Source: a plasmid. Taken from it: a stretch of 64,000 nt of DNA. The stretch is from sequence record NZ_CP143948.1, one strand, 5' to 3'. Position 1 is the stretch's first letter; the number at the start of each line of letters is the position of its first letter. A program made the position numbers and the translations under genes. The notes below the pieces were generated by a model. The model was not told where the DNA came from, did no database searches, and saw nothing but the letters and a program-made list of their open reading frames with translations. This document shows positions 10,182 to 38,528 of this stretch, piece by piece.

Positions 10182-10190
10182 GAATGAATT

Positions 10191-10487: not shown

Positions 10488-10545
10488 TTTCATGTCCTCC
10501 TTAAAATAATTTTTATATATAATTGCATAAGCAATCATACCGTAT

Positions 10546-11445
10546 TTAATCTGCAGCCTGTGAGCTTTCCGCTTTTTCGCTGCCTGGGAAAATTATCATC
10601 TGCTCCAGCTCTTCTTTGGGAACCGCCTGGTATTTTTTGAGGTAATCCACTGTATTGACTGTGGTTCCCTCTGATCCCGGAGTGTCATATACAACTGTCT
10701 TGTTCTCTGTGAATTTATTGTCCGGAATTATATAATACTTTATCAGATTCAAATTATCTCTTACGCAGAATGTCATGTATGTTTTTCCATCCAGCTTTAT
10801 CCTCTCAAATGTTCCAAATGATACTATATCTAGACTGTCCTCTTTCTCTGTCTGATTCCATACCTCACTTCCCTCCTCTCTTGTATAAAGAGTTCCCTTT
10901 GAATACGAATACAGTGTCTCCATCTGGGTATTATTTCCCGAATCATCTGTAGTGATTTCGCGCTGTACATAGCCTTCTTCTTCCACATACTTTTCGTCTC
11001 CACCAGACACATAACGATGTCGCTTCCAGTTTCCACCATATGCGCCTATATTATATGTTGAATAATCCACTTTATTATGTATTATGTCACCAAGTCTGGT
11101 CTCCCCTCTGCGATTAGAGCTATTTCCATAATCGATAAGTTCTTTCCCATCATACGATATAATATTTACGTTTAAATCCTCTGTTATTTCCAAAGGAGTC
11201 TTTGACGGACCAAAATGCATCCTATATATCATTATCTTCCCTTCCTCTTTAATCCTCTGATCTATCATCTCTGATATCGTGATTTCACCTTCCGGCTCTG
11301 TGGTCACACGCTCTGCTGCCGTGCAATCTGTTTCTGTTGCCTGTGCTGCTGATGTGTCATTTTCCTTCTTATCCTTTTTTTCACATGCTGTCACCATACA
11401 TAACATACATGCTGCTATCATAAGAACTGATATTGCTTTCTTCAT
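10546..11445 (-). CDS. secreted lipoprotein, paralog A
   Basis: Lipobox MVTAC. 299 aa, Tyr/Thr-rich. Confidence 0.6.
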   Translation of the reverse strand: MKKAISVLMIAACMLCMVTACEKKDKKENDTSAAQATETDCTAAERVTTEPEGEITISEMIDQRIKEEGKIMIYRMHFGPSKTPLEITEDLNVNIISYDGKELIDYGNSSNRRGETRLGDIIHNKVDYSTYNIGAYGGNWKRHRYVSGGDEKYVEEEGYVQREITTDDSGNNTQMETLYSYSKGTLYTREEGSEVWNQTEKEDSLDIVSFGTFERIKLDGKTYMTFCVRDNLNLIKYYIIPDNKFTENKTVVYDTPGSEGTTVNTVDYLKKYQAVPKEELEQMIIFPGSEKAESSQAAD

Positions 11446-11496
11446 AATAAATTTTCCTTTCTGTATGCGTTGCATTCATGCCTATTTATTGTTATC

Positions 11497-13218: not shown

Positions 13219-13236
13219 TATGCGTCACCCCTCCTT

Positions 13237-13548
13237 CTAATACGCTTCATATGTTCCTATACCATATATATCTCCATCTGCCTCATCTACATCTCTCACA
13301 AATTCATTAAGTTTTTTTGACATTTCCCTGAAGGATTCTCCCAGTATACTCTGATATGTATGAACAGCATCCTCGTACACTTCCAGCTTATCGTGCAATT
13401 CACCGCTTATAACCGCATTTGTGTTTATAATATCAAGTATCATCTGATATTCGTTCATCTGTCTATCTGCAATCTTTGCAAGTTCTGAGTATAAACGCAC
13501 AAGTTCTGTAAATTCCTCCTGCTCAAACATTAAATTGTACTGTCCCAT
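13237..13548 (-). CDS. YwqI-like small WXG100-like protein
   Basis: 103 aa, helical. Its start is adjacent to the stop of the upstream gene. Confidence 0.4.
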   Translation of the reverse strand: MGQYNLMFEQEEFTELVRLYSELAKIADRQMNEYQMILDIINTNAVISGELHDKLEVYEDAVHTYQSILGESFREMSKKLNEFVRDVDEADGDIYGIGTYEAY

Positions 13549-13976
13549 TACTTACTCTCCATTCTTCTTTTTTTTATTCTCAGCTGCTCTATATTGTCCT
13601 CATATGTACACAGCTGCTGATTTATTTCATATATCCTGTCATTTCTGCTCCTGATTGCATTCTCTACATCTCTCAGCATTGAATCTATAGCATTCATCGC
13701 ATTGGCTACATACGATTTTCCGTCGTTTAATGAATTAATACTCTTAAGTCTGCCCTTCAGATTTGTTATATTACGACTGCTATATCTGTCCATGCCGGCT
13801 ATATTATCAACTCTGCATTTAAACCGGTTTTGCGCCTGCCATTTATATTCCTTTATTTTCAATGCTTCCTGATCCAAAGCATCTATTTCATTAAGCAGCC
13901 TGTTTTTCTCAAGCTGCAGATTTTCTACATTTGCCCGGTACCTTGATATTCTGCGACTTAATTCTTTTAGTTCCAT
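13548..13976 (-). CDS. YwqH/DUF5082-like coiled-coil protein
   Basis: 142 aa with a coiled-coil heptad pattern. It is the first gene of the effector operon. Confidence 0.4.
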   Translation of the reverse strand: MELKELSRRISRYRANVENLQLEKNRLLNEIDALDQEALKIKEYKWQAQNRFKCRVDNIAGMDRYSSRNITNLKGRLKSINSLNDGKSYVANAMNAIDSMLRDVENAIRSRNDRIYEINQQLCTYEDNIEQLRIKKRRMESK

Positions 13977-14011
13977 AATAGTATTATTCTCCTCACCTTT
14001 TATATTTAAAG

Positions 14012-15052
14012 CTATTCATTAAATATAAATTCCTCATTAGCTAACATCAGACAGTCTCCCGGTAATATCTCTGTTTCCTGCCCCGCCTTTATTATCCTTC
14101 CATTGATAAATGTGCCATTGGTAGAATTTTGGTCCATTACATAATAACGTCCGTTTCGCATGGTTATCACTGCATGCACCCTGCTGATATTCGTATTGTC
14201 TGCTACCGCATAATCTGACTTTTCCGGATTCTTTCCCAGCACAAACGATGGTTTGCCAAGCTCTATCTTTTCACCTGTTACCTGCCTTGTAAGACTTGCA
14301 AAATGATAGTTCACCGGTTGCATCTGCTGTATCTGCTGTACGGATATGCCATCATCTGACAACACTGTAGTTCCATCCATGCTGCCCTGCATTACCTGCT
14401 GCATTATCTGTTGCTGCATTGTCTGTTGCTGCATTGTCTGTTGCTGCATTATCTGTTGCTGCATTGTCTGCTGCATTGTCACTGCTTTGTTTTTCAGCAC
14501 GTTCACAACTGCACGCTCTTCGCGTGAGATATATTTTTCTATTGCATTGCCGTTGAAGCCATGGAAGCTTCTGACATAATACATAAATCTGGATATATAA
14601 TTCGTATCCTCATTGATAACAGGTGTCATTGTATAAATTATGTTTTCTATAAACCCGACAATATCTGCACTTTCCTGTCCTCCTACTATCGGAAAATATA
14701 TAAAGTACATCTCTTTTGTCATCTCGTTTATGTATACGTCATCCATATTAAAACGAACACTGTTTACGTTCAGTCCGTTATTGTATACATCCTCAACCAT
14801 TATTACTATCTGCTCAATCATGAAAAAGAAATCATATTTGCTTATGGCTTTTTTCAATCTATCGGTAAGATTTATATTTGCAGGGCACGTATATATGACA
14901 CTGTCTTTTTTTGTTTTTGTCACATGCATGATTCCACATGGTTTTATTCTGGCTAGCTGGCTTAGTTCGGTTTCATTTATTCTTTCCTTTCGTCCTGCCT
15001 TCATCATGGCAGTAACGGTCGATTTTTTTATGCTTACTTTTAATTTAGACAT
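14012..15052 (-). CDS. FHA domain protein with a poly-Q linker
   Basis: C-terminal FHA signature (…GKNPEKSDYAVADNTNISRVHAVI…NSTNGTFINGRII…). Carries a (QQT/IMQ)n repeat. Confidence 0.7.
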   Translation of the reverse strand: MSKLKVSIKKSTVTAMMKAGRKERINETELSQLARIKPCGIMHVTKTKKDSVIYTCPANINLTDRLKKAISKYDFFFMIEQIVIMVEDVYNNGLNVNSVRFNMDDVYINEMTKEMYFIYFPIVGGQESADIVGFIENIIYTMTPVINEDTNYISRFMYYVRSFHGFNGNAIEKYISREERAVVNVLKNKAVTMQQTMQQQIMQQQTMQQQTMQQQIMQQVMQGSMDGTTVLSDDGISVQQIQQMQPVNYHFASLTRQVTGEKIELGKPSFVLGKNPEKSDYAVADNTNISRVHAVITMRNGRYYVMDQNSTNGTFINGRIIKAGQETEILPGDCLMLANEEFIFNE

Positions 15053-15069
15053 TCGCTATTTTCCATTCC

Positions 15070-15489
15070 TTATGAGATACATTCTGTCGTATGTAAAAAT
15101 TCTATTTTCTTTGTTACTTCGAACCTGATATTGGTTTTTTGCAGCTTTTCGGTTATATCTTCCAATACTGTGGTTTCATCCTGCAATACTTCTGTCGGTG
15201 CATCCAGCACAGTAGTTTCATCTATATTTTGTGTATATCCCGGCTTTTTCTTATTCTCCCCTGCCAGGTTATATGACGGTGCTATCGGACCGGACGATGT
15301 TATGTCAATATGTCCCGCTGTCTGCTTTTGTACAATTGCTGCAATTCCTTTCCGGGCAGATTTTCCGGTAAGTGCACCTATGACCTTAGGTATTTCAAGC
15401 ACTATAAGTATGACTATTGAAGCTATAAGCATTATGGCAAATGCGGTGAAGGATACGTAAAATATCATCCTGTACTGATTATAAGTCAT
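15070..15489 (-). CDS. small N-terminally membrane-anchored protein with ETTVL(D/E) repeats
   Basis: One TM helix at residues 8-30. Overlaps the kinase gene by 11 nt. Confidence 0.4.
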   Translation of the reverse strand: MTYNQYRMIFYVSFTAFAIMLIASIVILIVLEIPKVIGALTGKSARKGIAAIVQKQTAGHIDITSSGPIAPSYNLAGENKKKPGYTQNIDETTVLDAPTEVLQDETTVLEDITEKLQKTNIRFEVTKKIEFLHTTECIS

Positions 15490-17176
15490 CTTTGTTTTCC
15501 TCCTTCACGCTCTGTGCCTTCTCAATTGTTTTGTCTATATTATCCTGCAATCCTGTTATTTGCTCGCGCATTATGGATTTATCCAGCTTTTCTGTTTTGT
15601 CCTTTATCGTATGTAATAAATCCATAACTTTATCCTTATCTGTCACTGCTATAAATGATGTGATATTTGTGTCAACTATATCATCTATCTCATTCCATAC
15701 CTGAATCTTTGCGTCTACGCTGTCAAAATCCTCTGATTTTGCATATAGCTCATTTATTTGCTTCCATAGCTTTTTGTATTCTTCATATGTTTTTTCTGTC
15801 TGTTGTATCTTTGCTCCATCATACTGGCTAATCAATGTCAGACAATCTGATATCTCACAGTATATTCCTGCCTCCGGATGATTCTCCTTCGCTTCCTTGA
15901 ACCACTGCGCCGCACTGGAGTATCTGTCTTTTTCCACATTGATTTCGTAGTAGAATAAAAAGCTTTCACCAATCTTATAGCATACATCCTCATATCCCTT
16001 TGGATTTTTTCCTTTCAGCTTTGCCATGACATCATATGTATGCACCCGGCCATTGTGGTCCTTGCAATCTATACCTACCATCAGCCTGTTCAATATCTGC
16101 GCCTCATCCCTGTCCAGCACAAAATCGTCTGTCAGTTTGTCATTCAGCTTAAGATATGCCTCCGTCCTTGTCGGGTCGGTGACTATAGCCGTGTAATATC
16201 CATTGTCATAATTGTCATAGGTATCCGCTTCTTTTAATATGCTATTATAGTTTTCATTTTTTTTGTGTTCTGCCGCACAATAGCTTAATACTGTGCTTGT
16301 TCCAAGCAGCATCGTCAAAACTGATGTGGTGATAAATACCGCAAGCTTTCTCTTTAGATTCTTCCTATACATGTCATCAATCTCTGTATAGTGCTCAAGG
16401 TCATACATCAGCTCAGCTGCGCTCTGATATCTGTTGTTTGGATCCGGCTGTGTACACTTTGTAATAATACGTTCAAGACCACCTGACAATGTTGGGTCAA
16501 TTTCTCTGATCGGCCTTATTTCGTAAGGTGGCTCACAGGGATTCATTCCCGTAACAAGATGATACATTGTGGCTCCCAGACAATATATATCTGTTCTCGC
16601 GTCTGTCTGCCCCATTCCACCAAACTGTTCCGGTGCAGCATATCCCATCGTGCCAAGACATGTTGTATCCTCTATGTTATTTTCCTTATATTCCCTTGCT
16701 GTTCCAAAATCTATAAGCACCACATTTCCATCAGGCTTTAGCATTATGTTTGCCGGCTTCATATCACGATATATGATTGGCGGGTTCTGTGAGTGCAGAT
16801 ACCCAAGAACGTCGCATAGCTGTTTAGCCCACTTTATCACATTTTTCTGCGACTGGGCTCCGTACTCCTGCAATGCTGTCTTGAGAGAATTTCCCTCTAT
16901 ATAATCCATTACGATAAGGAATCTGTCATCCTCATCTATGACATCGACAATATCAGGAAGACTGGGATGGCTCAGTTTTTTGAGCATATTGGTCTCCGCA
17001 ACAAGACTTTGCTTTACCACCTCAAAATCCTTTACTCCATCCTTTCTGACCTCTTTTATTGCCCACTGTTTGTTTGCCCTTTCATTCATAGCCAGGTACA
17101 CAACGCTCATTCCGCCGTGTCCAACTTCGTTTAGTATCTTGTATTTTCCGTCAATTAAAGAGCCTATTTCAAGCAT
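15479..17176 (-). CDS. Hanks-type Ser/Thr protein kinase, single TM, non-PASTA extracellular domain
   Basis: GHGGMSVVY glycine loop, AIKE lysine, YRDMKPANIML, DFG and GTMGYAAPE motifs. TM helix around residue 290. Confidence 0.85.
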   Translation of the reverse strand: MLEIGSLIDGKYKILNEVGHGGMSVVYLAMNERANKQWAIKEVRKDGVKDFEVVKQSLVAETNMLKKLSHPSLPDIVDVIDEDDRFLIVMDYIEGNSLKTALQEYGAQSQKNVIKWAKQLCDVLGYLHSQNPPIIYRDMKPANIMLKPDGNVVLIDFGTAREYKENNIEDTTCLGTMGYAAPEQFGGMGQTDARTDIYCLGATMYHLVTGMNPCEPPYEIRPIREIDPTLSGGLERIITKCTQPDPNNRYQSAAELMYDLEHYTEIDDMYRKNLKRKLAVFITTSVLTMLLGTSTVLSYCAAEHKKNENYNSILKEADTYDNYDNGYYTAIVTDPTRTEAYLKLNDKLTDDFVLDRDEAQILNRLMVGIDCKDHNGRVHTYDVMAKLKGKNPKGYEDVCYKIGESFLFYYEINVEKDRYSSAAQWFKEAKENHPEAGIYCEISDCLTLISQYDGAKIQQTEKTYEEYKKLWKQINELYAKSEDFDSVDAKIQVWNEIDDIVDTNITSFIAVTDKDKVMDLLHTIKDKTEKLDKSIMREQITGLQDNIDKTIEKAQSVKEENKDDL

Positions 17177-17185
17177 CTGTTCCTC

Positions 17186-17968
17186 CTACTGTGCCTTTAT
17201 GAGCGCTGCTGTTATATTATCGCGCTCTCCTCTTTGCATGCTTAGTCTGATGAGCTGCTCCAGTCTGTCGTGCATATTCTGCCCATCTACAGTTGCTGCC
17301 GTTTTCAGCATCTCATAGATTTCCTGTTCTGATACCTCATGCCTGAAGCCATCTGAACAAAGCAGAAGTGACATTCCATTTTTCATTGCCCCGGTCCTGT
17401 ACTCCGGCTTTACTTCTGCTGATGCCCCGACACACTGCAGCAGTACATTCCTTCGCGGATCTCTCATAGCCTGCTCCTGTGTCATATTTCCATTCATAAT
17501 TTCCCGCTGTACATATGTCTGGTCTGTCGTAAGCCTTTCTATATGGTCTGAAAGGCTATATATTCTGGAATCGCCCACGTTTATAATGTAGTAGGCTTTT
17601 TGCGTGACAAGCAGCGCTACCACTGTTGTTCCCATGTTTACTGCATGTGCTTTGCCATATGCTTTTATTTTTTCGTTCTGCTGCTGTATTACTTCATCCC
17701 ACTGTCTTTCCAGAATCAGACTGTCAATATCCGGGTTCGACGATTTGCAAAGCTCAGGCAGCTGCTCGTCACTCCATCTGTCAAATGCTCTGACTACAGT
17801 GGCACTGGCCAGCTCACCCTTCGATAAGCCGCCCATGCCGTCACATAATACTGCAAATGCCATGTCTCCTTTGCATGTTGAGAAGCACTTTACCAGCAGA
17901 CTATCCTGATTAGTTTCTTTTACGATTCCTCTGTCCGTGTCAGCTGCTATTTCAAATCTCATACTCAC
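17186..17968 (-). CDS. PP2C-family Ser/Thr phosphatase
   Basis: Motifs DRGIVKETNQD, DGMGG and VGDSR. 4-nt gap to the kinase gene. Confidence 0.85.
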   Translation of the reverse strand: MSMRFEIAADTDRGIVKETNQDSLLVKCFSTCKGDMAFAVLCDGMGGLSKGELASATVVRAFDRWSDEQLPELCKSSNPDIDSLILERQWDEVIQQQNEKIKAYGKAHAVNMGTTVVALLVTQKAYYIINVGDSRIYSLSDHIERLTTDQTYVQREIMNGNMTQEQAMRDPRRNVLLQCVGASAEVKPEYRTGAMKNGMSLLLCSDGFRHEVSEQEIYEMLKTAATVDGQNMHDRLEQLIRLSMQRGERDNITAALIKAQ

Positions 17969-18105
17969 TCCTCCCAGAATTCAAAATCTTCGTTTCCAAG
18001 TCTGCCTTGAAGGGCATGCGCTTTCGCGCATGCCACAGACATTGTTGTTTTTCCCACACCACCACATGGTAATGTAAATACATAGGTAATTATCTTATTG
18101 CTCAT
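17965..18105 (-). pseudogene. 46-aa ORF carrying a ParA/MinD-type Walker A motif (gene fragment or micro-ORF)
   Basis: MSNKIITYVFTLPCGGVGKTTMSVACAKAHALQGR… It overlaps the stop of the surface-protein gene and the start of the phosphatase gene. Confidence 0.3.
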
Positions 18106-21100
18106 CATTGTCTTTCTTTTCTTTCATCTTTTTTCTCATATAATAAACGATTATCAATATCGCAATTATAAGTACAAATAATAATATTGCTCCAATTATA
18201 TATACTGCCTTATCATTGTTTGTTTCTACTGATTTGACATCTGACGAATTTGATTCCATAGGTACATCATCTTCGGCAATCTCTGTATCTGCTTCTGTAT
18301 CCTTACCATATATTTTTTTCACTTCATTGGTCTTTCCACCTTCGTCAACAGAACAGTCTGCACACTCTACCATAAGCCTTGAATCACCGTCTTTTGCAGA
18401 GAGCACCTCCTTAGGTACTTCAAACTCTATCTTTCCGTCATGCTTGTCCAGATAGTCAAGCATATCGTCTCCCGACATTTCCTTGATAACCTTTTTTTCT
18501 TTGTCATCCTTGCCCACTACAGTAATCTTTACACGTCCAAGCTTTCCACCATCATCCTTCGGCATCAATACTGCATTCTTTGAGCCAATATAGTTTTCAT
18601 TGTTTTTATCTACACCTGTCAATGTATATGTAGGTGCTGTCTTGTCCACAATAAATTCAATATTTACACTCTTCACATCACTGTAGGCAACTGAATCTGC
18701 TTTGTCCTTTGTCTCCACAACGATATTGTACTGACCCTCTTTTTCAAATACCGCATTTGATATCACATATTCGTACTTATGCCAGCCATCGCTTTCACTT
18801 ACATTATTCACACTGAAGTCTGTTCCCTGCTTAAGTGCTTTTCCATTTACTTTGACAGTACAGCTGGTAACTTCATCCGGATTTATCTCTCTGACTACCA
18901 CATCATGGTATACCTTCTGCACATAGTAATCCTTTACAAGCTTCATCGTATTGTCATCCAGCGAGAAGATTGAACCGCCTTTGTTTATGGAGAAATCCAT
19001 CAATTTTTCTCCCTGCCCTGCAGTCTCTGTCACCTGCTTTCCGCCTGCATCTATAATATTGACTGTTTCATAAGAATTTCCGGCCTTATCCTGTGCATGG
19101 CATGTCAGTGAATACACTCCATCCTCATTGAGATTTCTAAACTCTACACGTTGTCCGTTTGAAATTGATATCACATTTCCGGTAATCGTTTTTCTTACGA
19201 ATCTGCTATTTTCATATACCTCAACTGTAAGCACCGGTGAAAAGTATTCAAGATTAGTATCTGTGCACTCTATTACAAATGACATATTTCCTGAATTATT
19301 GTTTACTGAGCCCGGGGTTACTCCGTTGATTGTTACAACAGGCTTTGTCGTATCTATGCAGAACTCCTGCTTTGCAAGGTCTTTTGCCTTATTGCCGGCT
19401 TTGTCTGTATATGCAAGTGACCATGTATATGTGGCATCCGCATCAAAGCTTAATGTTGCCGTATGTATATCACCATTATCTGACCAGCTTCCAAATGCCG
19501 GTGCTGCTACTGATTTTCCTGCATCCTGCGCAGTCATGCTCAGTGCTATTCTGCTTGTATCAAAATTGTGCTCTGTGATTGTCACAGTTGCTGTTCTCTT
19601 GTTATTATAATAGTTTCCGTTTGATGCACTGTTGTTATCATATGCTACCGAAATAACAGGTGCTGTCGTATCAATTGTAAATTTTGTCGGTGCAAGCGAA
19701 TTTGCATAATCCACTCCTGCTGCGGCATTTCCCGCAATGTCTTTTACTCCGATTCCAAATGTGTAATCGTCATCATGTCCGTAATATATTGTGGCAACAT
19801 GTACTGTATCATCACCGTTACCGCTTCCACCTTCTGTGCTCCAGTTTGAAAGAGCAGGTGCCTTACCTGCTGCGGCTTTTATTTCCGCTGCTACCTTTGA
19901 TGCATCAAAGTTACGCTCTGTTACTTTTACGGTTGCTGTTCGCGGTGCTTTGAAGTATGCTGTGTCTCCAAATGATGTATCTGCACTGTTATTGTCATAG
20001 CTTACCTGCACTGTTGGTGCTGTTGTATCTATTTTTATGTATTTTGTTACTGTGTATGCCGTTCCTGCATTGTCTGTTGCGGTAACATCTATACGCACTT
20101 CATTACTGTTGTTTGAAGCCGCGCTTATGTCAAATTGCTCTGTTACATGATTTTCCAGATCTTTTAAGCCCGCTGCTGTCTTATCATAGCTATATAATGT
20201 TCCATCCTGTGTCGTCTGTCCCATATTTGTTACCGTATAGTTTACGCTCTTTATTCCTGATGCAACTCCTGTGGCATTCTCATCTGATACCTCTATACTT
20301 ACCGGCACATCTGCACTGTACACTCCTGATGCTGTCTCAGGTGTGATGACTGATATTGCCGGTGCGCATGTATCAACTACCAATCCATTTGTGCTGATAT
20401 ATGAAACATTACCGCTTAAATCTGTAACCCTGACATATACCACGCAGTTTTTGTTCTCGCATTCTATCGGTTCACTGAAGGTGCCATCCTCATTAAGGCT
20501 GTAAAGTGTCTTCCAGTCAGCCTCCTGAATACTGTCTACGTCAATTATTGCATCCTCTGCTGAAACGAAATACTCTGCTGACTTGATGCCGCCATGCTCA
20601 TCTCTAAGCTGTCCGGCAATATTAACCTTCTTGGCAGCAAATCTTGAAATCTCATATTTGTCTTTTGGCAGCAATAAATCCCAAACGGTATCCATGCCTG
20701 TTGAAAGTCCGTCAAACCTGATATTTCCTGTCGGCGACTGTACGTCAATTACAAACTCTGCTGATTTGTCTCCTTCTATCTCAAATCCATTATCTGAATT
20801 ACCACACAAATCTTTTGCACTGACACTCAGCTCATACTTGTGTCCTGCATTGAATACGAGCTGCTTACTGTAAACAGCTTCTGCTCCCTCGCCTGTCTTT
20901 ACCCAGTATGACTTTTCAGACCATGCATCTGACTGTGTCTGTTCATTTCCATCAACCTTTACATTGATTTTTGTTTCATCGGGGTCAAAGAAAAGCTCAT
21001 TCTCTTTTACCGAAATGGTTGCAATCCTGTTTTCCCTGTAATACTCAGTGCCTTTTACACTGCTGATGCACTGTGGATCCGGCTGCTCAGATGTACCATA

Positions 21101-23278
21101 TGTCACTGTTATTGCAGGCGCTGCCTTGTGAATATAAAATGGCTGGCTGCCGCTTGCTGTCAAATCCGCTACAGTCACGTTTCCTGCCTCATCAACAGCT
21201 TTAACATATACATCTACCTTTTTATCCAGATAAGCCTCAGCCGATACATTTATGATTCCTGATTCATCAAGCTCATTCCATGCACCTTCATCATCCGATA
21301 CTGACTGATCATCTGTCACTATCTGGTATTTTGCTGATACAACACCTGAAATGCTGTCAGCTACACTTGTTTTTATACGGACATCGTCATTGAAATATTT
21401 TCTGTTTTTGCCCGCTTCAGGCTCTATACTGACATCAGGTGACTGACTGTCCATGCTGAACTTGAAGCTGTCACCTTTAACCTCTGTCTTAAGACCGGCA
21501 TAATCAGTTGCCTTTACTGAAAGCATCAGATCAATTCCGTTAAACTGCTCTGTTGCCGGAATGGTTATCCTTCCTTCCCCGCTCTCGTCAAGCTCAACAG
21601 TCTGTCCTGATACAATTTTCCTTTTCCCATCAAATACAGTGTATTCAACACTCTTAATTCCTGATAAGCTGTCATCAGCCTTAACGATATAGCTTATATC
21701 ATCCTTATGCCAGCCTTTTTCATCGGCTGCTGTCATGGTATCCTGGGACACTGTAAGCTCCGGTGGCAGGGTATCAACAACCAGCTTCGATGTGGAGAAA
21801 AATGCTGTCTCGCCATTACAATTGTCCTGAGCCTTTACATATACGTTATATGAAGTATCCTTCAGATCAGATGTATTAATCTTGTACTTATATCGGGCTT
21901 CATATGTATCCTCAATAAGCTCTAACGGCTTCCATGCTGAATCATCAAGCGCTTTTACCTGCTCATCATTTAAAATACTGCCACTTTCATCTGATTTATT
22001 CACATAGTAGAATGCCTGCTTTATTCCGCTGATATCCTCCAGCTGTCCATATACATTTGATGCCTGCTGACTGACCATATTCTGCTCGTCTATTAAATCA
22101 GCATCATATCCAATAGTACCTGAAGGCGCTTTTCTATCCACATAAAACGGCTGCTCTATTGAGCTTGTATCATTACACTCATGCTCCGCCTGATCCTTCG
22201 CATACATTCCGATTATCTGATATTTGTGTTCCTCATCCGCTTTTGTACCAAATGTGATGCAGCTGCTATAATCAGCCCCTGTCACGATCCACTCACTATA
22301 CTCTATTCCTGCATCAATCAGCTTCTGGGCATTATCGACATCAAATACATCGAATTCTTCCCGGTCATCAACCTTTACCCAAAGCTGTGTGGAACCATCA
22401 TCCAAAGAGACATCGTGGATATTCATGTCTACTTTTCTGACATTTCCATAATAATCCACAGCATCCTTTGTGAAAGCAGGTTTATCATCCTCCTTTGGAT
22501 TCAATGTTATCTTTGGAGGCTGTGTATCATATTTGTAGTCGAGCCGCAGACTTCCAATATCTGTGATAGCTCCGCTTTCCTTGTCCTTACGTGCTATTAC
22601 AAGAGTCTGTCTGTTATCACCCTGCTGTGGCATAAGCTGATATTTATCAGCTTCAATCCATTCATCACCTTTTCTAACCACATATACCGCCTGATTGTCA
22701 CTTGCCAGCGATAATGTAGGTGCTTCTACATAAAACTGTGTACCCTGCAGCATTGTCCCTGTCAGGCTGTTATTCATACTGCTGTAATCATATTCTTTGA
22801 TGGTAACAGTATATTCTGCCTCTGCTGACTTATATTTGTCATCTTCTGCTTTTGTCACCTTTATCCTTACAGTTCCGGTATCCTTTGCTGTCCATATACC
22901 GTTTGATGCAAAGTCTGTATCCTTTTCAATCAGATTTTTGCCTTCTACAACAGTGTATTTTAAATTGTCAACGGCTGCATCCGCCCTGTCGGATTTTACC
23001 ACCGGAACAACTTTGTTCCCCACATAAATATCATCCGCCGGTGTATACTCTACCGTCAGCTGCTGTGGCTGTTTTTCCTCGGTGGCATTATTATCCGAAT
23101 CCTGTTCATCTGGAATTTTACTGTCAGATATATCATCCGAAGCTGCGTCGTTAGATATATCATACTCTGAAGAGGGTGTATCAGCACTTACCTGTGTTGC
23201 CGGAAGCGATGTCGCACCCATTACAGAAGCTAGCATGATTGCTAGTAACCTGTTAAGTTTTTTATTAAACACTCTCAT
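18095..23278 (-). CDS. giant type-I membrane surface protein with repeated Ig-like (Big-type) domains
   Basis: Signal peptide (…ATQVSA↓D). About 1650-aa ectodomain with recurring motifs …DTTAPT… and …T(E/I)…NFD… C-terminal TM plus a KKMKEKK stop-transfer. No LPXTG. Confidence 0.7.
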   Translation of the reverse strand: MRVFNKKLNRLLAIMLASVMGATSLPATQVSADTPSSEYDISNDAASDDISDSKIPDEQDSDNNATEEKQPQQLTVEYTPADDIYVGNKVVPVVKSDRADAAVDNLKYTVVEGKNLIEKDTDFASNGIWTAKDTGTVRIKVTKAEDDKYKSAEAEYTVTIKEYDYSSMNNSLTGTMLQGTQFYVEAPTLSLASDNQAVYVVRKGDEWIEADKYQLMPQQGDNRQTLVIARKDKESGAITDIGSLRLDYKYDTQPPKITLNPKEDDKPAFTKDAVDYYGNVRKVDMNIHDVSLDDGSTQLWVKVDDREEFDVFDVDNAQKLIDAGIEYSEWIVTGADYSSCITFGTKADEEHKYQIIGMYAKDQAEHECNDTSSIEQPFYVDRKAPSGTIGYDADLIDEQNMVSQQASNVYGQLEDISGIKQAFYYVNKSDESGSILNDEQVKALDDSAWKPLELIEDTYEARYKYKINTSDLKDTSYNVYVKAQDNCNGETAFFSTSKLVVDTLPPELTVSQDTMTAADEKGWHKDDISYIVKADDSLSGIKSVEYTVFDGKRKIVSGQTVELDESGEGRITIPATEQFNGIDLMLSVKATDYAGLKTEVKGDSFKFSMDSQSPDVSIEPEAGKNRKYFNDDVRIKTSVADSISGVVSAKYQIVTDDQSVSDDEGAWNELDESGIINVSAEAYLDKKVDVYVKAVDEAGNVTVADLTASGSQPFYIHKAAPAITVTYGTSEQPDPQCISSVKGTEYYRENRIATISVKENELFFDPDETKINVKVDGNEQTQSDAWSEKSYWVKTGEGAEAVYSKQLVFNAGHKYELSVSAKDLCGNSDNGFEIEGDKSAEFVIDVQSPTGNIRFDGLSTGMDTVWDLLLPKDKYEISRFAAKKVNIAGQLRDEHGGIKSAEYFVSAEDAIIDVDSIQEADWKTLYSLNEDGTFSEPIECENKNCVVYVRVTDLSGNVSYISTNGLVVDTCAPAISVITPETASGVYSADVPVSIEVSDENATGVASGIKSVNYTVTNMGQTTQDGTLYSYDKTAAGLKDLENHVTEQFDISAASNNSNEVRIDVTATDNAGTAYTVTKYIKIDTTAPTVQVSYDNNSADTSFGDTAYFKAPRTATVKVTERNFDASKVAAEIKAAAGKAPALSNWSTEGGSGNGDDTVHVATIYYGHDDDYTFGIGVKDIAGNAAAGVDYANSLAPTKFTIDTTAPVISVAYDNNSASNGNYYNNKRTATVTITEHNFDTSRIALSMTAQDAGKSVAAPAFGSWSDNGDIHTATLSFDADATYTWSLAYTDKAGNKAKDLAKQEFCIDTTKPVVTINGVTPGSVNNNSGNMSFVIECTDTNLEYFSPVLTVEVYENSRFVRKTITGNVISISNGQRVEFRNLNEDGVYSLTCHAQDKAGNSYETVNIIDAGGKQVTETAGQGEKLMDFSINKGGSIFSLDDNTMKLVKDYYVQKVYHDVVVREINPDEVTSCTVKVNGKALKQGTDFSVNNVSESDGWHKYEYVISNAVFEKEGQYNIVVETKDKADSVAYSDVKSVNIEFIVDKTAPTYTLTGVDKNNENYIGSKNAVLMPKDDGGKLGRVKITVVGKDDKEKKVIKEMSGDDMLDYLDKHDGKIEFEVPKEVLSAKDGDSRLMVECADCSVDEGGKTNEVKKIYGKDTEADTEIAEDDVPMESNSSDVKSVETNNDKAVYIIGAILLFVLIIAILIIVYYMRKKMKEKKDNDEQ

Positions 23279-24766: not shown

Positions 24767-27568
24767 TTATCCTGATATGAATGCCTCCATCCCGGCACGC
24801 TTCGTCATCTCAATATGCTCCTTAAGCTCGCGGGCTGACATTCGCAGTGCCCCCAGGCTCATGACCGTTTGCTGCTCCAGTCCGTCCGAGGTTGCCACTG
24901 TTACCTTGTACCTGTCACGTATGCCAAACACAGTCTTTTCGATAAATGCATCGGCTGTCTCGTCCTGCTTTGTATACACGACCTCTATGTTGTGGAAGGT
25001 CTCTCTCTTTCCGGCATTGCCCTTCACCTTGTACGCATCAAACACCAGCAGCAAATGACAGCCCTTATAGCCCTGGTAATCCGATAAAACATCCTTCAGC
25101 GCATCTCTCGCCGAATCGATGTTTATGCGTGAAAGCTCCTTTAAATCCTCCCATGCAAATATTATATTATATCCGTCAACTATCAGGTACTCTTCCCCCG
25201 GGGACTTCTTCGGATAAATCGGATTGCCGTGCTTATCATGCTTTACGGTGCGCGGTTTACCACTTAGGCCTTCATACTCATTTTTCTTTTTACCTGACCA
25301 TTTGCGCCTCTGATCCTCTGCGATATCGTTTTTGCCCATGCCAAACTCCCTGGCATAAACATCTGCAAGCTGCGCATCAAGCTCCACCGATGACATACCT
25401 GAAACAGCTTTCTCAAAGCTCGTCCTGCGGCGGTTTCCGGCAAGCGCCTGCGCATCCTCCGCTGAAAATGCATTCTGCGTGCGGGCACTCGCTGCAAGTG
25501 CTTCCTCAGACTCATCTCCGTGGTATACATACGGCAGGTGCATATGCTCCGGGACCTCATCCCACGGCACCACGTAGCCTGAGCCGTGCGCACAAAATAC
25601 CGAGCCTGTCGGATTGCGGAAATCCTCCTCGCTGTCATAGTGCATCTGAGAAATCACCTCCGCAGGATTGTGACACTCATCATACCCCCACAGCTCCAGT
25701 GTCAGGTGCCCGAGCCCCTTTGTATACGCATGCACCAGACTCACATAATCCTGCATTGTCGCAACCGGTGCCTTTCCTGTAATTGTTGCCATCTCCCTCG
25801 CAGCGGTTGTGGCAAACTGCGGGCTCTCGGCTCTTGCAAATCTCTGCTCCAGATCTGTCATTGCACGGCCGACATACTCCATCGGCACCTGTAGGATAAA
25901 GCTGTAGTATGGCTCAAGCAGCACACTCTCTGTGGATTTAAGTCCCTGGCGGATTGCTCTGTATGTAGCCTGACGGAAATCGCCTCCCTCCGTGTGCTTT
26001 ACATGTGCTCTTCCTGTAAGAATAGTGACCTTCACATCGGTAAGCGCTGAGCCTGTGAGCACACCCCTGTGCTCCTTTTCCTCAACGTGTGTGGCTATGA
26101 GGCGCTGCCAGTTTTTGTCAAGCACATCCTCACTGCAGGTGGATGTGACTGTGATTCCGCTGCCACGCTCCGCCGGCGACAAAAGCAGATGCACCTCTGC
26201 ATAGTGGCGCAACGGCTCAAAGTGTCCTACTCCCTCGACAGCCCTCGCTATCGTTTCCTTATATACAATGCTGCCCGGTCCGAAAGTGACAACAACACCA
26301 AACCTGTCCTTTATGAGACGCACAAGCACCTCCATCTGCACCTGTCCCATGAGCTGCACATGGATTTCCTTAAACTCCTCCACCCACACTATGTAAAGCT
26401 GTGGGTCTTCCTCCTCAAGCTGCTTTAGCTTTTCCATAAATGCCGCCGGATTTACATCATCCGGCAGAATCATCCTATAGTTTAGTACCGGTTCAAGGAT
26501 TGGCATATTGGACTGCTGCTCAAACCCGAGCCCCTGCCCAGGAAATGTCGAGCTAAGACCTGTGACAGCAACTATCTCACCCGTCTCTGCCACATCAGCT
26601 ATCTCATATTTTTCGCCGGAATACTTTCTTATCTGATCAATTTTCTCAATCAGAAAGCCTTTCGCCTCGTCACCGCCATGCGCTTTGTACTCTATTTTGT
26701 CCCTGACCCTAAGACATCCTCCGGTAACCTTTAAAAATGTCAGCCTGCTGCCTCTGTCATCCCTGCCTATCTTGTATACGCGGGCAGAAAATTCGTCAGG
26801 GTAATTTCTTTCACACATAAACCTCGAAAGTCCCTGAATCAGCGTATCCACTCTGTCGAGCTTAAGTGCCGAGCCGTAAAAGCAGGGGAACACCTCCCTT
26901 TGAGCCACCGCCTGCGCAATATGTGCATCCGCAAGCTCTCCCGATTCCATAAATTCATCTAAAAGAGGCTCGCTGCACATGGCAAGCTCCTCAAATAAAT
27001 CCTGTGAAGAAAAATCCACGCAGCCATCACTCAGCTCGCTCTTTAGCTCTGCCTGCACTTTCTCCTCATCCGTGCCCTGCATATCCATCTTGTTTACAAA
27101 AATAAATGTCGGCACGTTATAGTGCTTTAAAAGTCTCCACAGTGTGCGCGTGTGCCCCTGCACTCCATCAGTTGCGCTGATTACAAGTATTGCATAGTCG
27201 AGCACCTGAAGGGTGCGCTCCATCTCTGCCGAAAAATCCACATGCCCCGGTGTATCAAGCATGACTACATGCCATGTACGAGCTGTATCTGCCGTACATG
27301 CTACATCTGCTGTATGTGCTGTATCTGCTGTATCTGCCGCATTTGTGTCACGCGAAATATCAAGCCTTGCCTGCTTTGAAAAAATGGTTATTCCACGCTC
27401 ACGCTCCTGCGCATCGTTGTCCAGATACGCGTCCTGATGGTCCACGCGCCCGAGTGAACGAATCTTCCCGGTGCTGTAAAGCATGGCCTCAGACAGGGTT
27501 GTCTTTCCCGCATCTACATGTGCGAGAATGCCTATTGTAATGTGATTGTTTGTCATTTTCTGCTCCAT
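24767..27568 (-). CDS. translational GTPase (TetM/EF-G-like) fused to a C-terminal Rae1/YacP-type NYN ribonuclease domain
   Basis: N-terminus AHVDAGKTTL, DTPGH, NKMD and EF-G-like domains II-V. The last 142 aa align motif-for-motif with B. subtilis YacP/Rae1 (LIVDGYNIIFAW / LLLVFDAYKVKG / TADAFIE / TVATSD…GALRMSAREL). Confidence 0.8.
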   Translation of the reverse strand: MEQKMTNNHITIGILAHVDAGKTTLSEAMLYSTGKIRSLGRVDHQDAYLDNDAQERERGITIFSKQARLDISRDTNAADTADTAHTADVACTADTARTWHVVMLDTPGHVDFSAEMERTLQVLDYAILVISATDGVQGHTRTLWRLLKHYNVPTFIFVNKMDMQGTDEEKVQAELKSELSDGCVDFSSQDLFEELAMCSEPLLDEFMESGELADAHIAQAVAQREVFPCFYGSALKLDRVDTLIQGLSRFMCERNYPDEFSARVYKIGRDDRGSRLTFLKVTGGCLRVRDKIEYKAHGGDEAKGFLIEKIDQIRKYSGEKYEIADVAETGEIVAVTGLSSTFPGQGLGFEQQSNMPILEPVLNYRMILPDDVNPAAFMEKLKQLEEEDPQLYIVWVEEFKEIHVQLMGQVQMEVLVRLIKDRFGVVVTFGPGSIVYKETIARAVEGVGHFEPLRHYAEVHLLLSPAERGSGITVTSTCSEDVLDKNWQRLIATHVEEKEHRGVLTGSALTDVKVTILTGRAHVKHTEGGDFRQATYRAIRQGLKSTESVLLEPYYSFILQVPMEYVGRAMTDLEQRFARAESPQFATTAAREMATITGKAPVATMQDYVSLVHAYTKGLGHLTLELWGYDECHNPAEVISQMHYDSEEDFRNPTGSVFCAHGSGYVVPWDEVPEHMHLPYVYHGDESEEALAASARTQNAFSAEDAQALAGNRRRTSFEKAVSGMSSVELDAQLADVYAREFGMGKNDIAEDQRRKWSGKKKNEYEGLSGKPRTVKHDKHGNPIYPKKSPGEEYLIVDGYNIIFAWEDLKELSRINIDSARDALKDVLSDYQGYKGCHLLLVFDAYKVKGNAGKRETFHNIEVVYTKQDETADAFIEKTVFGIRDRYKVTVATSDGLEQQTVMSLGALRMSARELKEHIEMTKRAGMEAFISG

Positions 27569-27688
27569 TTATGCCTCAATCCAAGAACAGAGACACCTGT
27601 GGATGTCTCTGTGTCAGCCTTTATATCATAATCCGTTGATTTCCTAAATTATAGCATTTTGTGGTTGGTCTGTCATCTTTTTTCTTGA

Positions 27689-27717
27689 TTGACAAATAAT
27701 TATTTCGTACTTATAAT
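27689..27717 (+). promoter_or_regulatory. consensus sigma-A promoter TTGACA-17-TATAAT for brnTA (apparently leaderless)
   Basis: TTGACA at 27689-27694 and TATAAT at 27712-27717. The ATG lies at 27724. Confidence 0.5.
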
Positions 27718-27723
27718 GTAATT

Positions 27724-28011
27724 ATGGAGAATATAATTTTTGAATGGGATGAAAATAAAAATACAATTAATAAACGAAAACACAAAATTTCATTTGAAGA
27801 GGCAAAAAGTGTTTTCTACGATGAAAATGCTTTAGTTTTGGATGATCCAGACCACTCATTGACTGAGGACCGCTTTATTATTTTAGGTTTAAGTAATAAT
27901 GCTAATCTATTGGTCGTTTGTCATTGTTATCGCAACTCTGACTCTAATATAAGGATAATCTCTGCAAGAAAAGCCACTACAAATGAGCGTAAACAGTATT
28001 TTGATTTTTAG
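27724..28011 (+). CDS. brnT: BrnT (DUF497) type II toxin
   Basis: …FEWDENKN…ISFEEA…RIISARKAT..ER..Y matches the BrnT signature. Confidence 0.75.
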   Translation: MENIIFEWDENKNTINKRKHKISFEEAKSVFYDENALVLDDPDHSLTEDRFIILGLSNNANLLVVCHCYRNSDSNIRIISARKATTNERKQYFDF

Positions 28012-28022
28012 GAGGATCAATC

Positions 28023-28232
28023 ATGAGAGATGAATACGACTTTTCCAACGCAAAACGCAATCCTTACGCAAAAAAACTAAAAAAACAAATTACAATTAAT
28101 ATTGATGAAAATACAATAGATTATTTTAAAGTGCAAGCTGAAAATTCGGGAATTCCTTACCAGACACTTATTAATTTATATCTATCAGATTGTGTCACAC
28201 AAAAAAGAGAACTCCAGCTTTCATGGAAATAA
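28023..28232 (+). CDS. brnA: BrnA antitoxin
   Basis: 69 aa, 11 nt downstream of brnT. Motif …DEYDFSNAKRNPYAKKLKKQITINIDE…. Confidence 0.65.
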   Translation: MRDEYDFSNAKRNPYAKKLKKQITINIDENTIDYFKVQAENSGIPYQTLINLYLSDCVTQKRELQLSWK

Positions 28233-28244: not shown

Positions 28245-29573
28245 ATGAACAAAAAAGAAGTATTGGAACTAAAACGAAGATTAAAAAAAGACCAGGCAAC
28301 CTTCAGTCGTCTGGTCGGCTGCTACGTGGACTGCAACCATGAAAAGGTCTGCAAATTCGGTGGCAAATTTCTCACTCTGGAGGAGGATGAATACTACAAA
28401 TATCTGGAGATTTCAAACAAAGTGCTTTCCGGCACTCTCGGAAACAACCTGCTCAATCTGCAGTTTCCTCTTGAAGAGGAAGAGGTCGGAGGCCGCCAGC
28501 AGATTCTCATGGCGCTTCGCGACAGCGAGCTTAATGATGAGACTCTGCTCGATACATACTATGACCTGGTCATCGACACCTACGATGAGGCCGGGAACTA
28601 TCTGATTCTTTTGTATCTCGACAGCTACGATGTCATGACACGCACAAAGGACAACATCAACGTGGATGAGTCCGAGGAGGTGTACAAATACATGCTCTGC
28701 GCCATCTGCCCTGTCACACTTTCAAAGCCGGGCCTTGGCTATCTGGAAAAGGAGCAGCGTATCGGAGCCCGCATAAGGGACTGGGTGGTCGGTGCACCTG
28801 AGACAGGCTTTTTATTCCCTGCTTTCAACGATAGGAGCACTGACATACACTCCACTCTTTTCTATACGAAAAACACCAAGGAGCCTCACTCTGAGTTTAT
28901 GACAAACGGTCTCGGCTGCGGTGTGGAGCGCACAGCTACTGAGCAGAAGATGGCTTTCCATTCAATCGTCAGAAACGTGCTAGGTGCCGAGGACGAGAGC
29001 ACTGATGACAAGCTGCTTGATATCCAGCAGAATCTGTCCGAGATGGCCGATGACTACGCTGAGACTCACGATGATGACGACGATCCGTTCATTCTCGACA
29101 GCGAGGCTATGAACAAGGTGCTTAGTGACTGCCATGTCTCTGAGGAAAAGATTTCACGCATTGAAAAATCCGTCAATGAGGCCTTCGGTGACAAGCCGCC
29201 TATCGCAGCCAATGTCATTGATTCAAAGGCTCTTGCAGCTAATGAAATCCGCGTGGAAAAGCTTGCTCTTGAGAGCCAGGTCGGCGATTTAACTCTCGAG
29301 CTCAATGAGAAAAATGCGCAGCTTGAGGAGAAGGATTCTGTTATCCAGGAGAAAAATAATCAGATTGAGGAGCGCACTTCACAGCTTCTTGAGAAGCAGG
29401 AAGAGATTGATAATTACACTGCCCAAATTAAGACTTATGATGTGGTGCTTCATGTAAAGCCGGAGAAGGCTTCACAGATTCATGCGCAGGTCATCAATGG
29501 GGAGAAGTGTCTCGTCATTCCTATGAGGGAGAATGAGAATGCGACCATAAATGGGGTGAATACAAGTCTGTAG
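28245..29573 (+). CDS. DUF4317-like protein with a C-terminal coiled-coil
   Basis: N-terminus MNKKEVLELKRRLKKDQATFSRLVGCYVD is typical of Clostridial DUF4317 proteins. It starts 12 nt after brnA. Confidence 0.45.
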   Translation: MNKKEVLELKRRLKKDQATFSRLVGCYVDCNHEKVCKFGGKFLTLEEDEYYKYLEISNKVLSGTLGNNLLNLQFPLEEEEVGGRQQILMALRDSELNDETLLDTYYDLVIDTYDEAGNYLILLYLDSYDVMTRTKDNINVDESEEVYKYMLCAICPVTLSKPGLGYLEKEQRIGARIRDWVVGAPETGFLFPAFNDRSTDIHSTLFYTKNTKEPHSEFMTNGLGCGVERTATEQKMAFHSIVRNVLGAEDESTDDKLLDIQQNLSEMADDYAETHDDDDDPFILDSEAMNKVLSDCHVSEEKISRIEKSVNEAFGDKPPIAANVIDSKALAANEIRVEKLALESQVGDLTLELNEKNAQLEEKDSVIQEKNNQIEERTSQLLEKQEEIDNYTAQIKTYDVVLHVKPEKASQIHAQVINGEKCLVIPMRENENATINGVNTSL

Positions 29574-37478: not shown

Positions 37479-38528
37479 TTATATTTCAAATGCTTTTATA
37501 CTTTTAAGTGCATAACCATTATTATCAAAAACAGCTTGATTTTCCCACTCATTCCCCTTTCCACGAGCAACACCAACTCCCTTAATTTGATACCAACCCG
37601 GTTCCCAATAAAAAACACCAGCTCCATTTTTACACATCTTTACTGTTTTAATCACTTTTTCTAAAACTTTTTCTTGATTTTCAACCGAAGGTATTAACCC
37701 CATCACTTTTTTAGTTAATTCACCAGTAACAACATTTTGCATTTCATCATTTGATGTATCCGTATATGGAAAAGCTGTTTCAACAACAATAACCTGTTTA
37801 TGAAATAGATTTCCTATATTTATAATATTATCCATCAAAAGATTATATGTTCCTGACCAATATGGATAATAAGATAATCCTACATAATCAAAATCCCAAA
37901 GTCCTTCACTATTCAAATTTGAAAAAAAATGTTTTGTACGCTCTTTATCAGCACCACATTCTATATGCAATACCGTTTTAATTTTCTTACTATTAGTGCT
38001 ATACTGATTAATCTCTGCAATAGCTTTTAATCCCGAATTGATAAATTTAACTAACTGCTTTATATTATTGATATTGCCAAACTCCCATAACATACCATTT
38101 CCAATTTCATTTCCGATTTGTACAATATCCGGAACTGTTTCTTGTTCTATAAAACAATTTATGACATATTTTGTATATTCATAAACCATTTTTTCAATCT
38201 CAAATGCTTCAAGATTTTCCCAATCATTTGGAATTTTCTGTTGTTTCCAGTCTGCCCAAAAATCACTATAATGAAAATCCAACATAAATCCCAGTCCATA
38301 TTTTTTTATACGTTTCGCCATTCTAAGCGTATGTTTTAAATCACAATAATCTCCCTTATCAAATGATTCAGTTGGCTTATTAAATAACCTTAACCTTATA
38401 CAATTAACACCATGACTTGCAAGAATTTTTATTACATCTCCCTCTTCACCATTTAAATCATAGTATTTAGCTCCATAATCTTCCATTGCCTCTAAGCTAG
38501 AAATGTCAGCTCCTATAATAAAACTCAT
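37479..38528 (-). CDS. GH53 endo-beta-1,4-galactanase, cytoplasmic (no signal peptide)
   Basis: Motifs …DFHYSDFWADW… and …VVETAFPYT…. Confidence 0.7.
   Translation of the reverse strand: MSFIIGADISSLEAMEDYGAKYYDLNGEEGDVIKILASHGVNCIRLRLFNKPTESFDKGDYCDLKHTLRMAKRIKKYGLGFMLDFHYSDFWADWKQQKIPNDWENLEAFEIEKMVYEYTKYVINCFIEQETVPDIVQIGNEIGNGMLWEFGNINNIKQLVKFINSGLKAIAEINQYSTNSKKIKTVLHIECGADKERTKHFFSNLNSEGLWDFDYVGLSYYPYWSGTYNLLMDNIINIGNLFHKQVIVVETAFPYTDTSNDEMQNVVTGELTKKVMGLIPSVENQEKVLEKVIKTVKMCKNGAGVFYWEPGWYQIKGVGVARGKGNEWENQAVFDNNGYALKSIKAFEI

Follow-up and report, generated by a model that had tools for sequence, protein, structure and literature searches.

The window analysed here, 64,000 nucleotides of sequence record NZ_CP143948.1, carries on its minus strand a gene for a 933-residue protein in which a translational GTPase of the EF-G/TetM type is followed by an endoribonuclease domain of the YacP/Rae1 type (NYN domain). 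NCBI holds the identical protein as WP_306784676.1 and others, from Agathobacter rectalis (Lachnospiraceae). Because long-term selection has preserved the catalytic residues of both halves, a ribosome-delivered RNase is the natural reading of this fusion, and we tentatively favor one form of it: the protein may be a ribosome-docked, GTP-gated Rae1 whose mRNA cleavage takes place on ribosomes that have stalled or collided. An earlier reading of the window, made from its letters and open reading frames (the sequence-only reading), had drawn attention to the gene.

Architecture of the fusion protein

The reading frame, which shares its position with no other long frame, encodes a five-domain GTPase (residues 8-634), a Cys/His module (628-680), a linker of ~110 residues (681-792) and the NYN domain (793-933); coordinates are collected in Table 1. 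The domain matches at both the C-terminal and the N-terminal ends are far beyond chance. Pfam NYN_YacP matches residues 795-925 (4.8e-47; 160.5 bits against a cut-off of 24.6) over model positions 1-133 of 166, and the same part aligns to residues 3-133 of Bacillus subtilis YacP/Rae1 (PDB 5MQ8/5MQ9; E = 6e-29), pairing D798, D844, E870, D873 and D895 of the fusion with D7, D53, E78, D81 and D104 of Rae1. The D798-G-Y-N motif is present, and the predicted local distance difference test (pLDDT) of the domain is 80-90 in a full-length AlphaFold2 (AF2) model. The NYN_YacP family is defined by a D-GYN motif and at least four active-site Asp (PMC5499597), and by its motif and four catalytic Asp the domain of the fusion is, on sequence, a member. 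It stops ~35 residues short of stand-alone Rae1, the protein ending 8 residues past the Pfam match, and neither the profile nor the Rae1 PDB alignment shows a counterpart to model positions 134-166, where (from about position 134) the family has two C-terminal helices with conserved basic residues (PMC5499597).

The GTPase half carries the motifs G1 (AHVDAGKT), switch I (RGITI), DTPGH109 with the catalytic His (H109), NKMD and GSALK, all of them unchanged in 40-75 divergent relatives, and its GTP-hydrolysis apparatus appears intact. Pfam EFG_III, EFG_IV and EFG_C each score above their own cut-offs, and the EF-G_D2 match lies below its own, at 21.7 bits against a 27-bit gathering score. An AF2 model of residues 1-700, built from a more diverse alignment, has a pLDDT of 82.9 and a predicted template modelling score of 0.73, and its closest solved folds are EF-G, EF-G2 and EF2 (Foldseek E about 1e-50). 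By its motifs and predicted structure, the fusion is a member of the translational GTPase superfamily, of the EF-G/TetM type, with five domains in EF-G order. It shares with EF-G the overall fold and a His at the tip of a domain IV loop (GSYH in EF-G, GRAH with H522 in the fusion), but its loop I is 4 residues shorter and of unrelated sequence, identity to EF-G is about 23-25%, and it has an extra tail module, a linker and a nuclease. The tip loops of domain IV follow the patterns G446-x-GHFEPLxHYAEVH and G519-RAHxKHTxGGDFR.

Between the GTPase and the nuclease lie two parts of different character. The Cys/His module runs in the order GYDxC632-H633-N, an EF-G-like helix, F-C659-A-H661-G, P-W669-D-E and M676-H677; C632, H633, C659 and H677 are invariant in an alignment of fusions and their NYN-less relatives (described below), and EF-G and TetM lack the module in alignment. 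It is modelled as a helix, a beta-hairpin and a helix (pLDDT 61-91 in the model of residues 1-700) and may be a metal site. The linker contains one helix motif that is found family-wide, ELxxIFxRTxG (ELDAQLADVYAREFG, about 729-743, in a helix at 727-744, nt 25337-25390), and a basic motif conserved at clade level only, VKxDKxGNPIYP (775-786; nt 25211-25246). It is predicted to be flexible: in the full-length model the GTPase domains are confident and residues 634-790 have pLDDT < 50, and with the linker mostly below that value, the model does not fix where the NYN domain sits relative to the GTPase.

The G domain also contains a T/A/D/R-rich repeat insert in its beta2-beta3 hairpin, made of 6.2 copies of the 9-nt unit GCTGTATCT and having a 36-nt period as well. 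The insert is 26-41 residues long and varies among A. rectalis strains, is absent or short in other genera, and has pLDDT < 50; it behaves like a variable-number tandem repeat within a translation-factor fold.

In its structural claims the sequence-only reading was largely right. The fusion it described is real, its GTPase is complete in G motifs and in domains II-V (by Pfam, with EF-G_D2 sub-threshold, together with AF2 and Foldseek), every YacP/Rae1 motif it quoted is found where it was placed, and the catalytic Asp residues whose possible substitution it raised are intact. Its '~100-aa charged linker' stands as the linker at 681-792, but it did not single out the Cys/His module that comes before.

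Family size, conservation and NYN-less relatives

The identical protein occurs on 520 contigs and belongs to a 90% cluster of 20,090 sequences. In a search of 5.8 billion proteins, all 120 of the 120 best clusters share the fusion architecture. With residues 629-933 as query against 1.84 billion representatives at 50% identity, at least 412 representatives were found at E <= 1e-30, and the best 150 of these 412 are all fusions (830-1156 residues) or fragments of them, 74 being full-length. According to genome records, fusions occur in Blautia, Acetatifactor, Pseudobutyrivibrio, Lachnospiraceae bacterium AC2029, many Lachnospiraceae metagenome-assembled genomes (MAGs) and two Oscillospiraceae MAGs. 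A full fusion of about 50% identity, with a convergent RF3 gene, also occurs on a contig labelled Barnesiella intestinihominis (CAVJLG010000039.1, locus L022), which is probably mis-binned, given its GC of 0.55-0.59 and the clostridial distribution of the gene family elsewhere.

Alignments were made of 18 and 59 sequences and of two sets of distant relatives (75 sequences at 40-54% identity, and 40 sequences). The GTPase motifs including H109, and the NYN residues D798, D844, D873 and D895, show conservation of at least 97% across the 74 full-length representatives at 40-54% identity, and the same motifs and Asp residues are invariant in the alignment of 40 distant relatives. By these alignments, both active sites have been under long-term purifying selection.

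A sister clade has the GTPase without the nuclease. Relatives from Neobacillus cucumis (L018, 5144-7090) and from a Clostridiales MAG (L020, 5788-7755) match residues 11-679 only, at 42% identity; they are 648 and 655 residues long and end directly past the ...WDE...YMH module, without linker or NYN domain. With the Neobacillus protein as query, this clade of proteins of about 650 residues extends to Neobacillus, Priestia megaterium/aryabhattai, Peribacillus, Paenisporosarcina, Paenibacillus and Pseudobacillus. Its members are 42-46% identical to the fusion, have its invariant domain IV loops and its C632, H633, C659 and H677, and differ in having neither linker nor NYN domain. Because they stop right at the end of the Cys/His module, the nuclease was appended to a pre-existing GTPase, and because they share the loops and the Cys/His residues, the GTPase with its Cys/His module is a translational GTPase subfamily of its own, as yet uncharacterised. 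In the Clostridiales MAG, a gene for a PUA and S-adenosylmethionine (SAM) methyltransferase protein, which we take to be RlmI-like, lies 13 nt upstream of the NYN-less GTPase.

The architecture is not new as an observation, although the sequence-only reading did not recognise it as described: it was noted, without experiments, by Atkinson 2015 (PMC4342817), in 'ten species of clostridiales', and by Matelska 2017 (PMC5499597). Neither mention is later than the discovery of Rae1 function. We found no later paper on the architecture, and two recent Rae1 papers (PMC12407103, PMC13622287) are silent on it. The range of the family is far broader than the ten species given in 2015. The sequence-only reading had allowed that the fusion might be a well-annotated, widespread family with a known function; widespread it is, but its function is uncharacterised and its annotation misleading, and the fusion is best described as an uncharacterised variant of Rae1 and of TetM-like GTPases. 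What we add is the size and range of the family, its failure in tests for Tet proteins, the NYN-less sister clade, the Cys/His module, the missing Rae1 tail, vertical inheritance, and a mechanistic premise corrected in the light of Rae1 work from 2025-26. Because the fusion occurs in A. rectalis and in many dominant gut Lachnospiraceae, it would be part of the core translation-quality-control toolkit of the gut microbiome.

The tetracycline-resistance label

The public label of the protein is 'TetM/TetW/TetO/TetS family tetracycline resistance ribosomal protection protein'. TetM is indeed its best solved-structure match (224 bits), but NCBIfam tet_protect gives 389 bits against a cut-off of 775, and the models for TetM/W/O/S (262 against 1100), Tet(Q) (238 against 1425) and Otr(A) (274 against 900) fail likewise; identity to Tet(M), Tet(O) and Tet(W) borne on phages or on integrative and conjugative elements is 28-30%. 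In TetM the tip of loop III displaces tetracycline, P509 overlapping the drug and S508 and V510 lying adjacent (PMC7456112, PMC4750697). A hidden Markov model (HMM) alignment sets TetM L505-Y506-Y507-S508-P509-V510 without gaps against R520-A521-H522-V523-K524-H525 of the fusion, of which K524 and H525 are conserved in the family. The HMM alignment to TetM ends at G628-Y629-D630, and the Cys/His module stands in place of the TetM C-terminal extension, whose helix is functionally important (PMC4750697).

Tet(M), Tet(O) and Tet(W) thus resemble the fusion in being five-domain EF-G-like GTPases with the same loop III length and an extension past domain V, and differ from it in the loop III tip, in loop I, in having a C-terminal helix, in being mobile genes and in lacking a nuclease. 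By score, loop III tip and C-terminus, sequence tests say that the fusion is not a Tet ribosomal protection protein. The label can inflate resistome estimates, because the fusion fails every Tet-family test that was run.

A possible mechanism

B. subtilis Rae1 is, by experiment, a translation-dependent mRNA endonuclease that acts at stalled or collided ribosomes (PMC12407103, PMC13622287). It cuts at the trailing edge of the ribosome and probably needs collided ribosomes (PMC12407103); its cleavage feeds rescue by transfer-messenger RNA (tmRNA) after collisions, including erythromycin-induced ones, and it is central to the Gram-positive collision-rescue pathway (CART), though its ribosome binding is transient and no structure of the complex exists (PMC13622287). 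Factors of the EF-G/TetM type bind the GTPase-associated center, from which domain IV reaches the decoding site (PMC7456112). The sequence-only reading had Rae1 cleaving mRNA only inside the A-site and saw in the A-site-docking GTPase a vehicle to that substrate. The premise was a docking hypothesis from 2017 that its authors withdrew in 2025, and after this revision the simple geometry no longer follows; the broader proposal of a ribosome-targeted cleavage factor survives the loss of its A-site premise as the natural reading of two halves with conserved catalytic residues.

In the mechanism that we suggest, the GTP form of the GTPase half would bind the factor-binding site/A-site region of a stalled or collided ribosome, supplying ribosome binding and state selection. 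The tethered NYN domain would cut the mRNA of that ribosome or of its collided neighbor, as stand-alone Rae1 does, and the cut would yield a truncated mRNA for tmRNA rescue, as in B. subtilis. GTP hydrolysis would set the timing and release the factor. The GTPase may replace ribosome affinity and state selectivity that the C-terminal tail of Rae1, in a conjectural role, may provide.

Several points weigh against this mechanism. On a single ribosome a long distance separates the factor-binding site, on the mRNA-entry side, from the mRNA exit, where Rae1 cuts, and the model needs a long linker reach, action across the disome interface, or a cleavage site unlike that of Rae1. Because of this distance the most economical geometry would have the protein dock on the trailing ribosome when two collide, since the entry side of that ribosome should face the exit of the leading one. 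Cleavage by B. subtilis Rae1 also takes place in an in vitro translation assay (PMC12407103), and this suggests that neither the chemistry nor the targeting of Rae1 intrinsically needs a GTPase. Members of the fusion family are known from sequence and predicted structure alone, the RNA substrate could be rRNA or tRNA, and neighboring MATE genes (4 of ~14 loci) and ABCF and AraC genes (one locus) may be signs of a function tied to particular antibiotics. None of the fetched loci, which are the surroundings of the gene only, contains a stand-alone NYN gene, and the cysS-mrnC-rlmB-sigH region is not in the window; the fetched loci and the best 150 matches do not establish that fusion-bearing genomes have lost stand-alone Rae1.

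A fuller version of the ribosome-docked Rae1 is possible but rather doubtful: the fusion would be the Rae1 of Lachnospiraceae and Oscillospiraceae, made GTP-gated, its EF-G-like half recognising a non-productive ribosome state, and the NYN-less sister would be a rescue factor in the Rae1 pathway. By Rosetta-stone logic, the NYN-less protein of Bacillaceae would act in the same pathway as stand-alone Rae1. If this is true, it should be possible to capture a stable Rae1-ribosome complex, the first of its kind, with a non-hydrolysable GTP analogue and to solve its structure. Ribosome recognition by Rae1 is poorly understood because its binding is too transient to capture (PMC13622287); a tethered Rae1 could be locked on ribosomes by GDPCP/GDPNP or by mutation of H109, making recognition structurally testable.

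The fusion and Rae1 have in common the NYN_YacP fold, the D-GYN motif and the four catalytic Asp, and action on RNA in a ribosome context is expected of the fusion. Rae1 is, however, a stand-alone protein of about 170 residues with its own C-terminal tail, encoded in a gltX-cysS-mrnC-yacO operon (PMC5499597), whereas the NYN domain of the fusion sits behind a roughly 790-residue GTPase and linker, in a gene with DUF4317, MetAP and aminotransferase neighbors. SmrB of E. coli, Cue2 of yeast and RelE are, as proposed here for the fusion, endonucleases that cut mRNA for rescue on a non-productive ribosome; they have unrelated nuclease folds and no translational GTPase, and are recruited by SMR or ubiquitin-binding domains or by direct A-site binding.

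Alternative functions

We consider it unlikely that the enzyme is directed at rRNA, its NYN domain cutting 16S/23S rRNA or a precursor in ribosome maturation, inactivation or stress turnover. The methyltransferase read as RlmI-like, beside one NYN-less relative, would suit such a role but is a neighbor in one locus only. In the TetM-ribosome structure the C-terminal helix lies near h44/H69. The linker leaves the GTPase C-terminus where TetM has this important helix (PMC4750697), and YacP was first tied to rRNA/tRNA processing through its operon with Mini-III and the YacO methyltransferase (PMC5499597, PMC4342817). Without an inhibitor, however, a conserved core protein that cut rRNA constitutively would impose a high cost, and across loci no partner gene was found to be conserved. 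Protection of the ribosome from tetracycline-type or other antibiotics, with the NYN domain as an accessory that might clear mRNAs from drug-stalled ribosomes, seems distinctly improbable. The TetM match and the database labels favor it, as do the novel resistance mechanism suggested by Atkinson 2015 (PMC4342817), the MATE efflux and ABCF neighbors in some loci, and the induction of Rae1-dependent rescue in B. subtilis by erythromycin (PMC13622287). Yet the protein falls below the tet_protect and TetM/W/O/S cut-offs at its low identity to Tet(M/O/W), the tip of its loop III reads A-H-V-K-H with the EF-G-type His kept, a Cys/His module replaces the TetM C-terminal extension, and the gene is vertical, core and GC-ameliorated, unlike mobile tet genes. 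In addition, tetracyclines inhibited nearly all of a panel of gut commensals that included E. rectale (bioRxiv 10.1101/2020.01.09.893560), an indirect hint because it is taken at the level of the panel and not from species-level minimum inhibitory concentrations.

Triggered translation shutdown through RNA cutting on ribosomes, by a toxin or an anti-phage abortive-infection effector, appears very improbable; the sequence-only reading had listed a toxin and stress-triggered translation shutdown among its options. NYN/PIN nucleases and ribosome-dependent RNases are common as toxins, and a BrnT/BrnA pair adjoins the gene in the window, but this pair is an unrelated insertion, no immunity or partner gene is conserved across loci, and the fusion sits in stable core synteny with MetAP, YqeY and an aminotransferase. 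The Rae1 authors do speculate on a role against phage mRNAs (PMC13622287); PADLOC, however, gives a marginal match only, to LeoA (1.4e-4, over the G domain), and the 'phage' record carrying a fusion that was examined is bacterial DNA. What probability remains belongs to mechanisms other than the ribosome-docked Rae1 and these three rivals.

Genomic setting and inheritance

In A. rectalis and three genera-level relatives the fusion lies in a shared order of genes: SipL/LysM, NlpC/P60, YqeY, SurA_N, MetAP, DUF4317, the fusion and an aminotransferase. Across 19 loci the GC of the gene tracks that of its host, from 0.37 to 0.67. Recent horizontal transfer, considered on account of a gene GC of 0.51 against 0.40 for the window, was rejected: GC follows the host, and core neighbors have similar GC at third codon positions (GC3). 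The gene looks chromosomal, core and vertically inherited.

No neighbor is conserved family-wide among the divergent loci compared, and a known defence system was rejected on the PADLOC result and the lack of any recurring neighbor in those loci. The DUF4317 gene adjoins the fusion in the window and in four fetched loci (L001, L002, L004 and L005), in either orientation, with a 13-nt gap on the same strand in L001; its protein gives weak coiled-coil-type matches at about 300-420 and showed no homology in PDB or NCBIfam. As a functional partner in the manner of Pelota/Hbs1 it was rejected, its adjacency being inherited local synteny that is absent from all loci at about 50% identity. The aminotransferase, which adjoins the fusion in the close (Agathobacter-like) clade only, was rejected as an operon partner.

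In 4 of ~14 divergent loci the fusion has a MATE (MatE) multidrug efflux gene as its immediate neighbor, in varied orientations. These genomes have many MATE genes and the adjacency may be accidental, or it may hint at a connection with drug stress. In L003 (P0117, 58% identity) positions 140-3549, upstream on the same strand, hold an ABCF-type ATPase (two ABC_tran, ABC_tran_Xtn and ABC_tran_CTD domains), a DUF3837 gene and an AraC-family regulator, the last echoing the helix-turn-helix neighbors remarked on by Matelska (PMC5499597). Downstream of the fusion, GreA is found in one locus and RF3 in one locus. The neighborhoods have a loose flavor of translation and drug stress and are not decisive.

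The BrnT toxin and BrnA antitoxin genes of the window are absent from the syntenic loci L001, L004 and L005, and because of this absence from related loci the pair is taken as an unrelated insertion in A. rectalis. The stem-loop in the predicted 5' untranslated region (UTR) folds at -19.1 kcal/mol (z = -2.05), its tie to the fusion gene being tentative, and no Rfam family matches the upstream region. A leader, attenuator or riboswitch was rejected: there is no Rfam match and a small hairpin only, and L001 has 13 nt upstream.

Phage origin was likewise rejected, since the PHROG match is explained by Tet(M/O/W) on prophage-like records. Two human faecal virome records named 'Bacteriophage sp.' carry the fusion (MT835563.1, locus L086, and MT835514.1) and are flagged UNVERIFIED. 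Housekeeping genes on MT835563.1, for NAD(P)H-hydrate dehydratase, DAP epimerase, a LysR regulator and peptidoglycan-binding proteins, show it to be bacterial chromosomal DNA and not phage. Several short, unannotated records labelled 'Listeria/Staphylococcus/Enterococcus phage' match the NYN domain at 36-44% identity; we suspect that they are fragments of host yacP.

Table 1. The fusion gene, its parts, its neighbors and other features; positions refer to the window unless a fetched locus (L number) is named
Feature	Position	Strand	Residues or size	Basis or remark
Translational GTPase-NYN fusion coding sequence	24767..27568	-	933 aa + stop	ATG start; open reading frame list, translation
G domain	26825..27547	-	8-248	Pfam GTP_EFTU 3.5e-51
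Repeat insert, beta2-beta3 hairpin of G domain	27272..27367	-	about 68-99	tandem repeats
Domain II	26543..26794	-	259-342	Pfam EF-G_D2 sub-threshold; AF2 beta-barrel, pLDDT 72-93
Domain III	26279..26485	-	about 362-430	Pfam EFG_III 373-430; AF2 model
Domain IV	25934..26272	-	433-545	Pfam EFG_IV
Domain IV loop I, GVGHFEPLRHYAEVH	26189-26233	-	G446-H460	family-specific, invariant
Domain IV loop III, GRAHVKHTEGGDFR	25973-26014	-	G519-R532	family-specific, invariant
Domain V	25667..25924	-	549-634	Pfam EFG_C
C-terminal Cys/His module	25529..25687	-	628-680	family-specific
Linker	25193..25528	-	681-792	variable length and sequence (alignments)
YacP/Rae1-type NYN endoribonuclease domain	24770..25192	-	793-933	Pfam NYN_YacP
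Stem-loop, predicted 5' UTR	27587..27615	-	11-13 bp	~20 nt upstream of GAGG ribosome-binding site
Fusion promoter-like site	27648..27676	-		ATGACA, 17 nt, TG-TATAAT; consensus scan only
brnT promoter-like site	27689-27717			12/12 consensus; divergent from fusion promoter-like site
BrnT toxin/BrnA (CopG-like) antitoxin pair	27724-28232	+		between DUF4317 and fusion
DUF4317 protein	28245-29573	+	428-442 aa (range over loci)	also L001 6701-7987; L004 4623-5909; L005 4618-5904
MATE neighbors of the fusion	L006 2857-4200; L009 6251-7672; L010 10803-12104; L014 10527-13357			Lachnospiraceae/Oscillospiraceae
PT-TG protein with C-terminal TNT (tuberculosis necrotizing toxin) domain	4898-6694	-	598 aa	
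DUF5081	7040-7681	-		
FHA protein	14012-15052	-		
Ser/Thr kinase	15479-17176	-		
PP2C phosphatase	17186-17968	-		
Protein with bacterial Ig-like Big_3/Big_13 domains	18095-23278	-	1727 aa	two genes downstream of fusion
GH53 endo-galactanase gene	37479-38528	-		

Other features of the window

On the minus strand, positions 1887-17968 resemble a type VII secretion or polymorphic-toxin locus. Several small open reading frames beside the gene for the TNT protein have no Pfam match and could be immunity genes. The gene for the large Ig-like protein has a GC3 of 0.36 against 0.41-0.58 for its neighbors, and its product is presumably a cell-surface adhesin.

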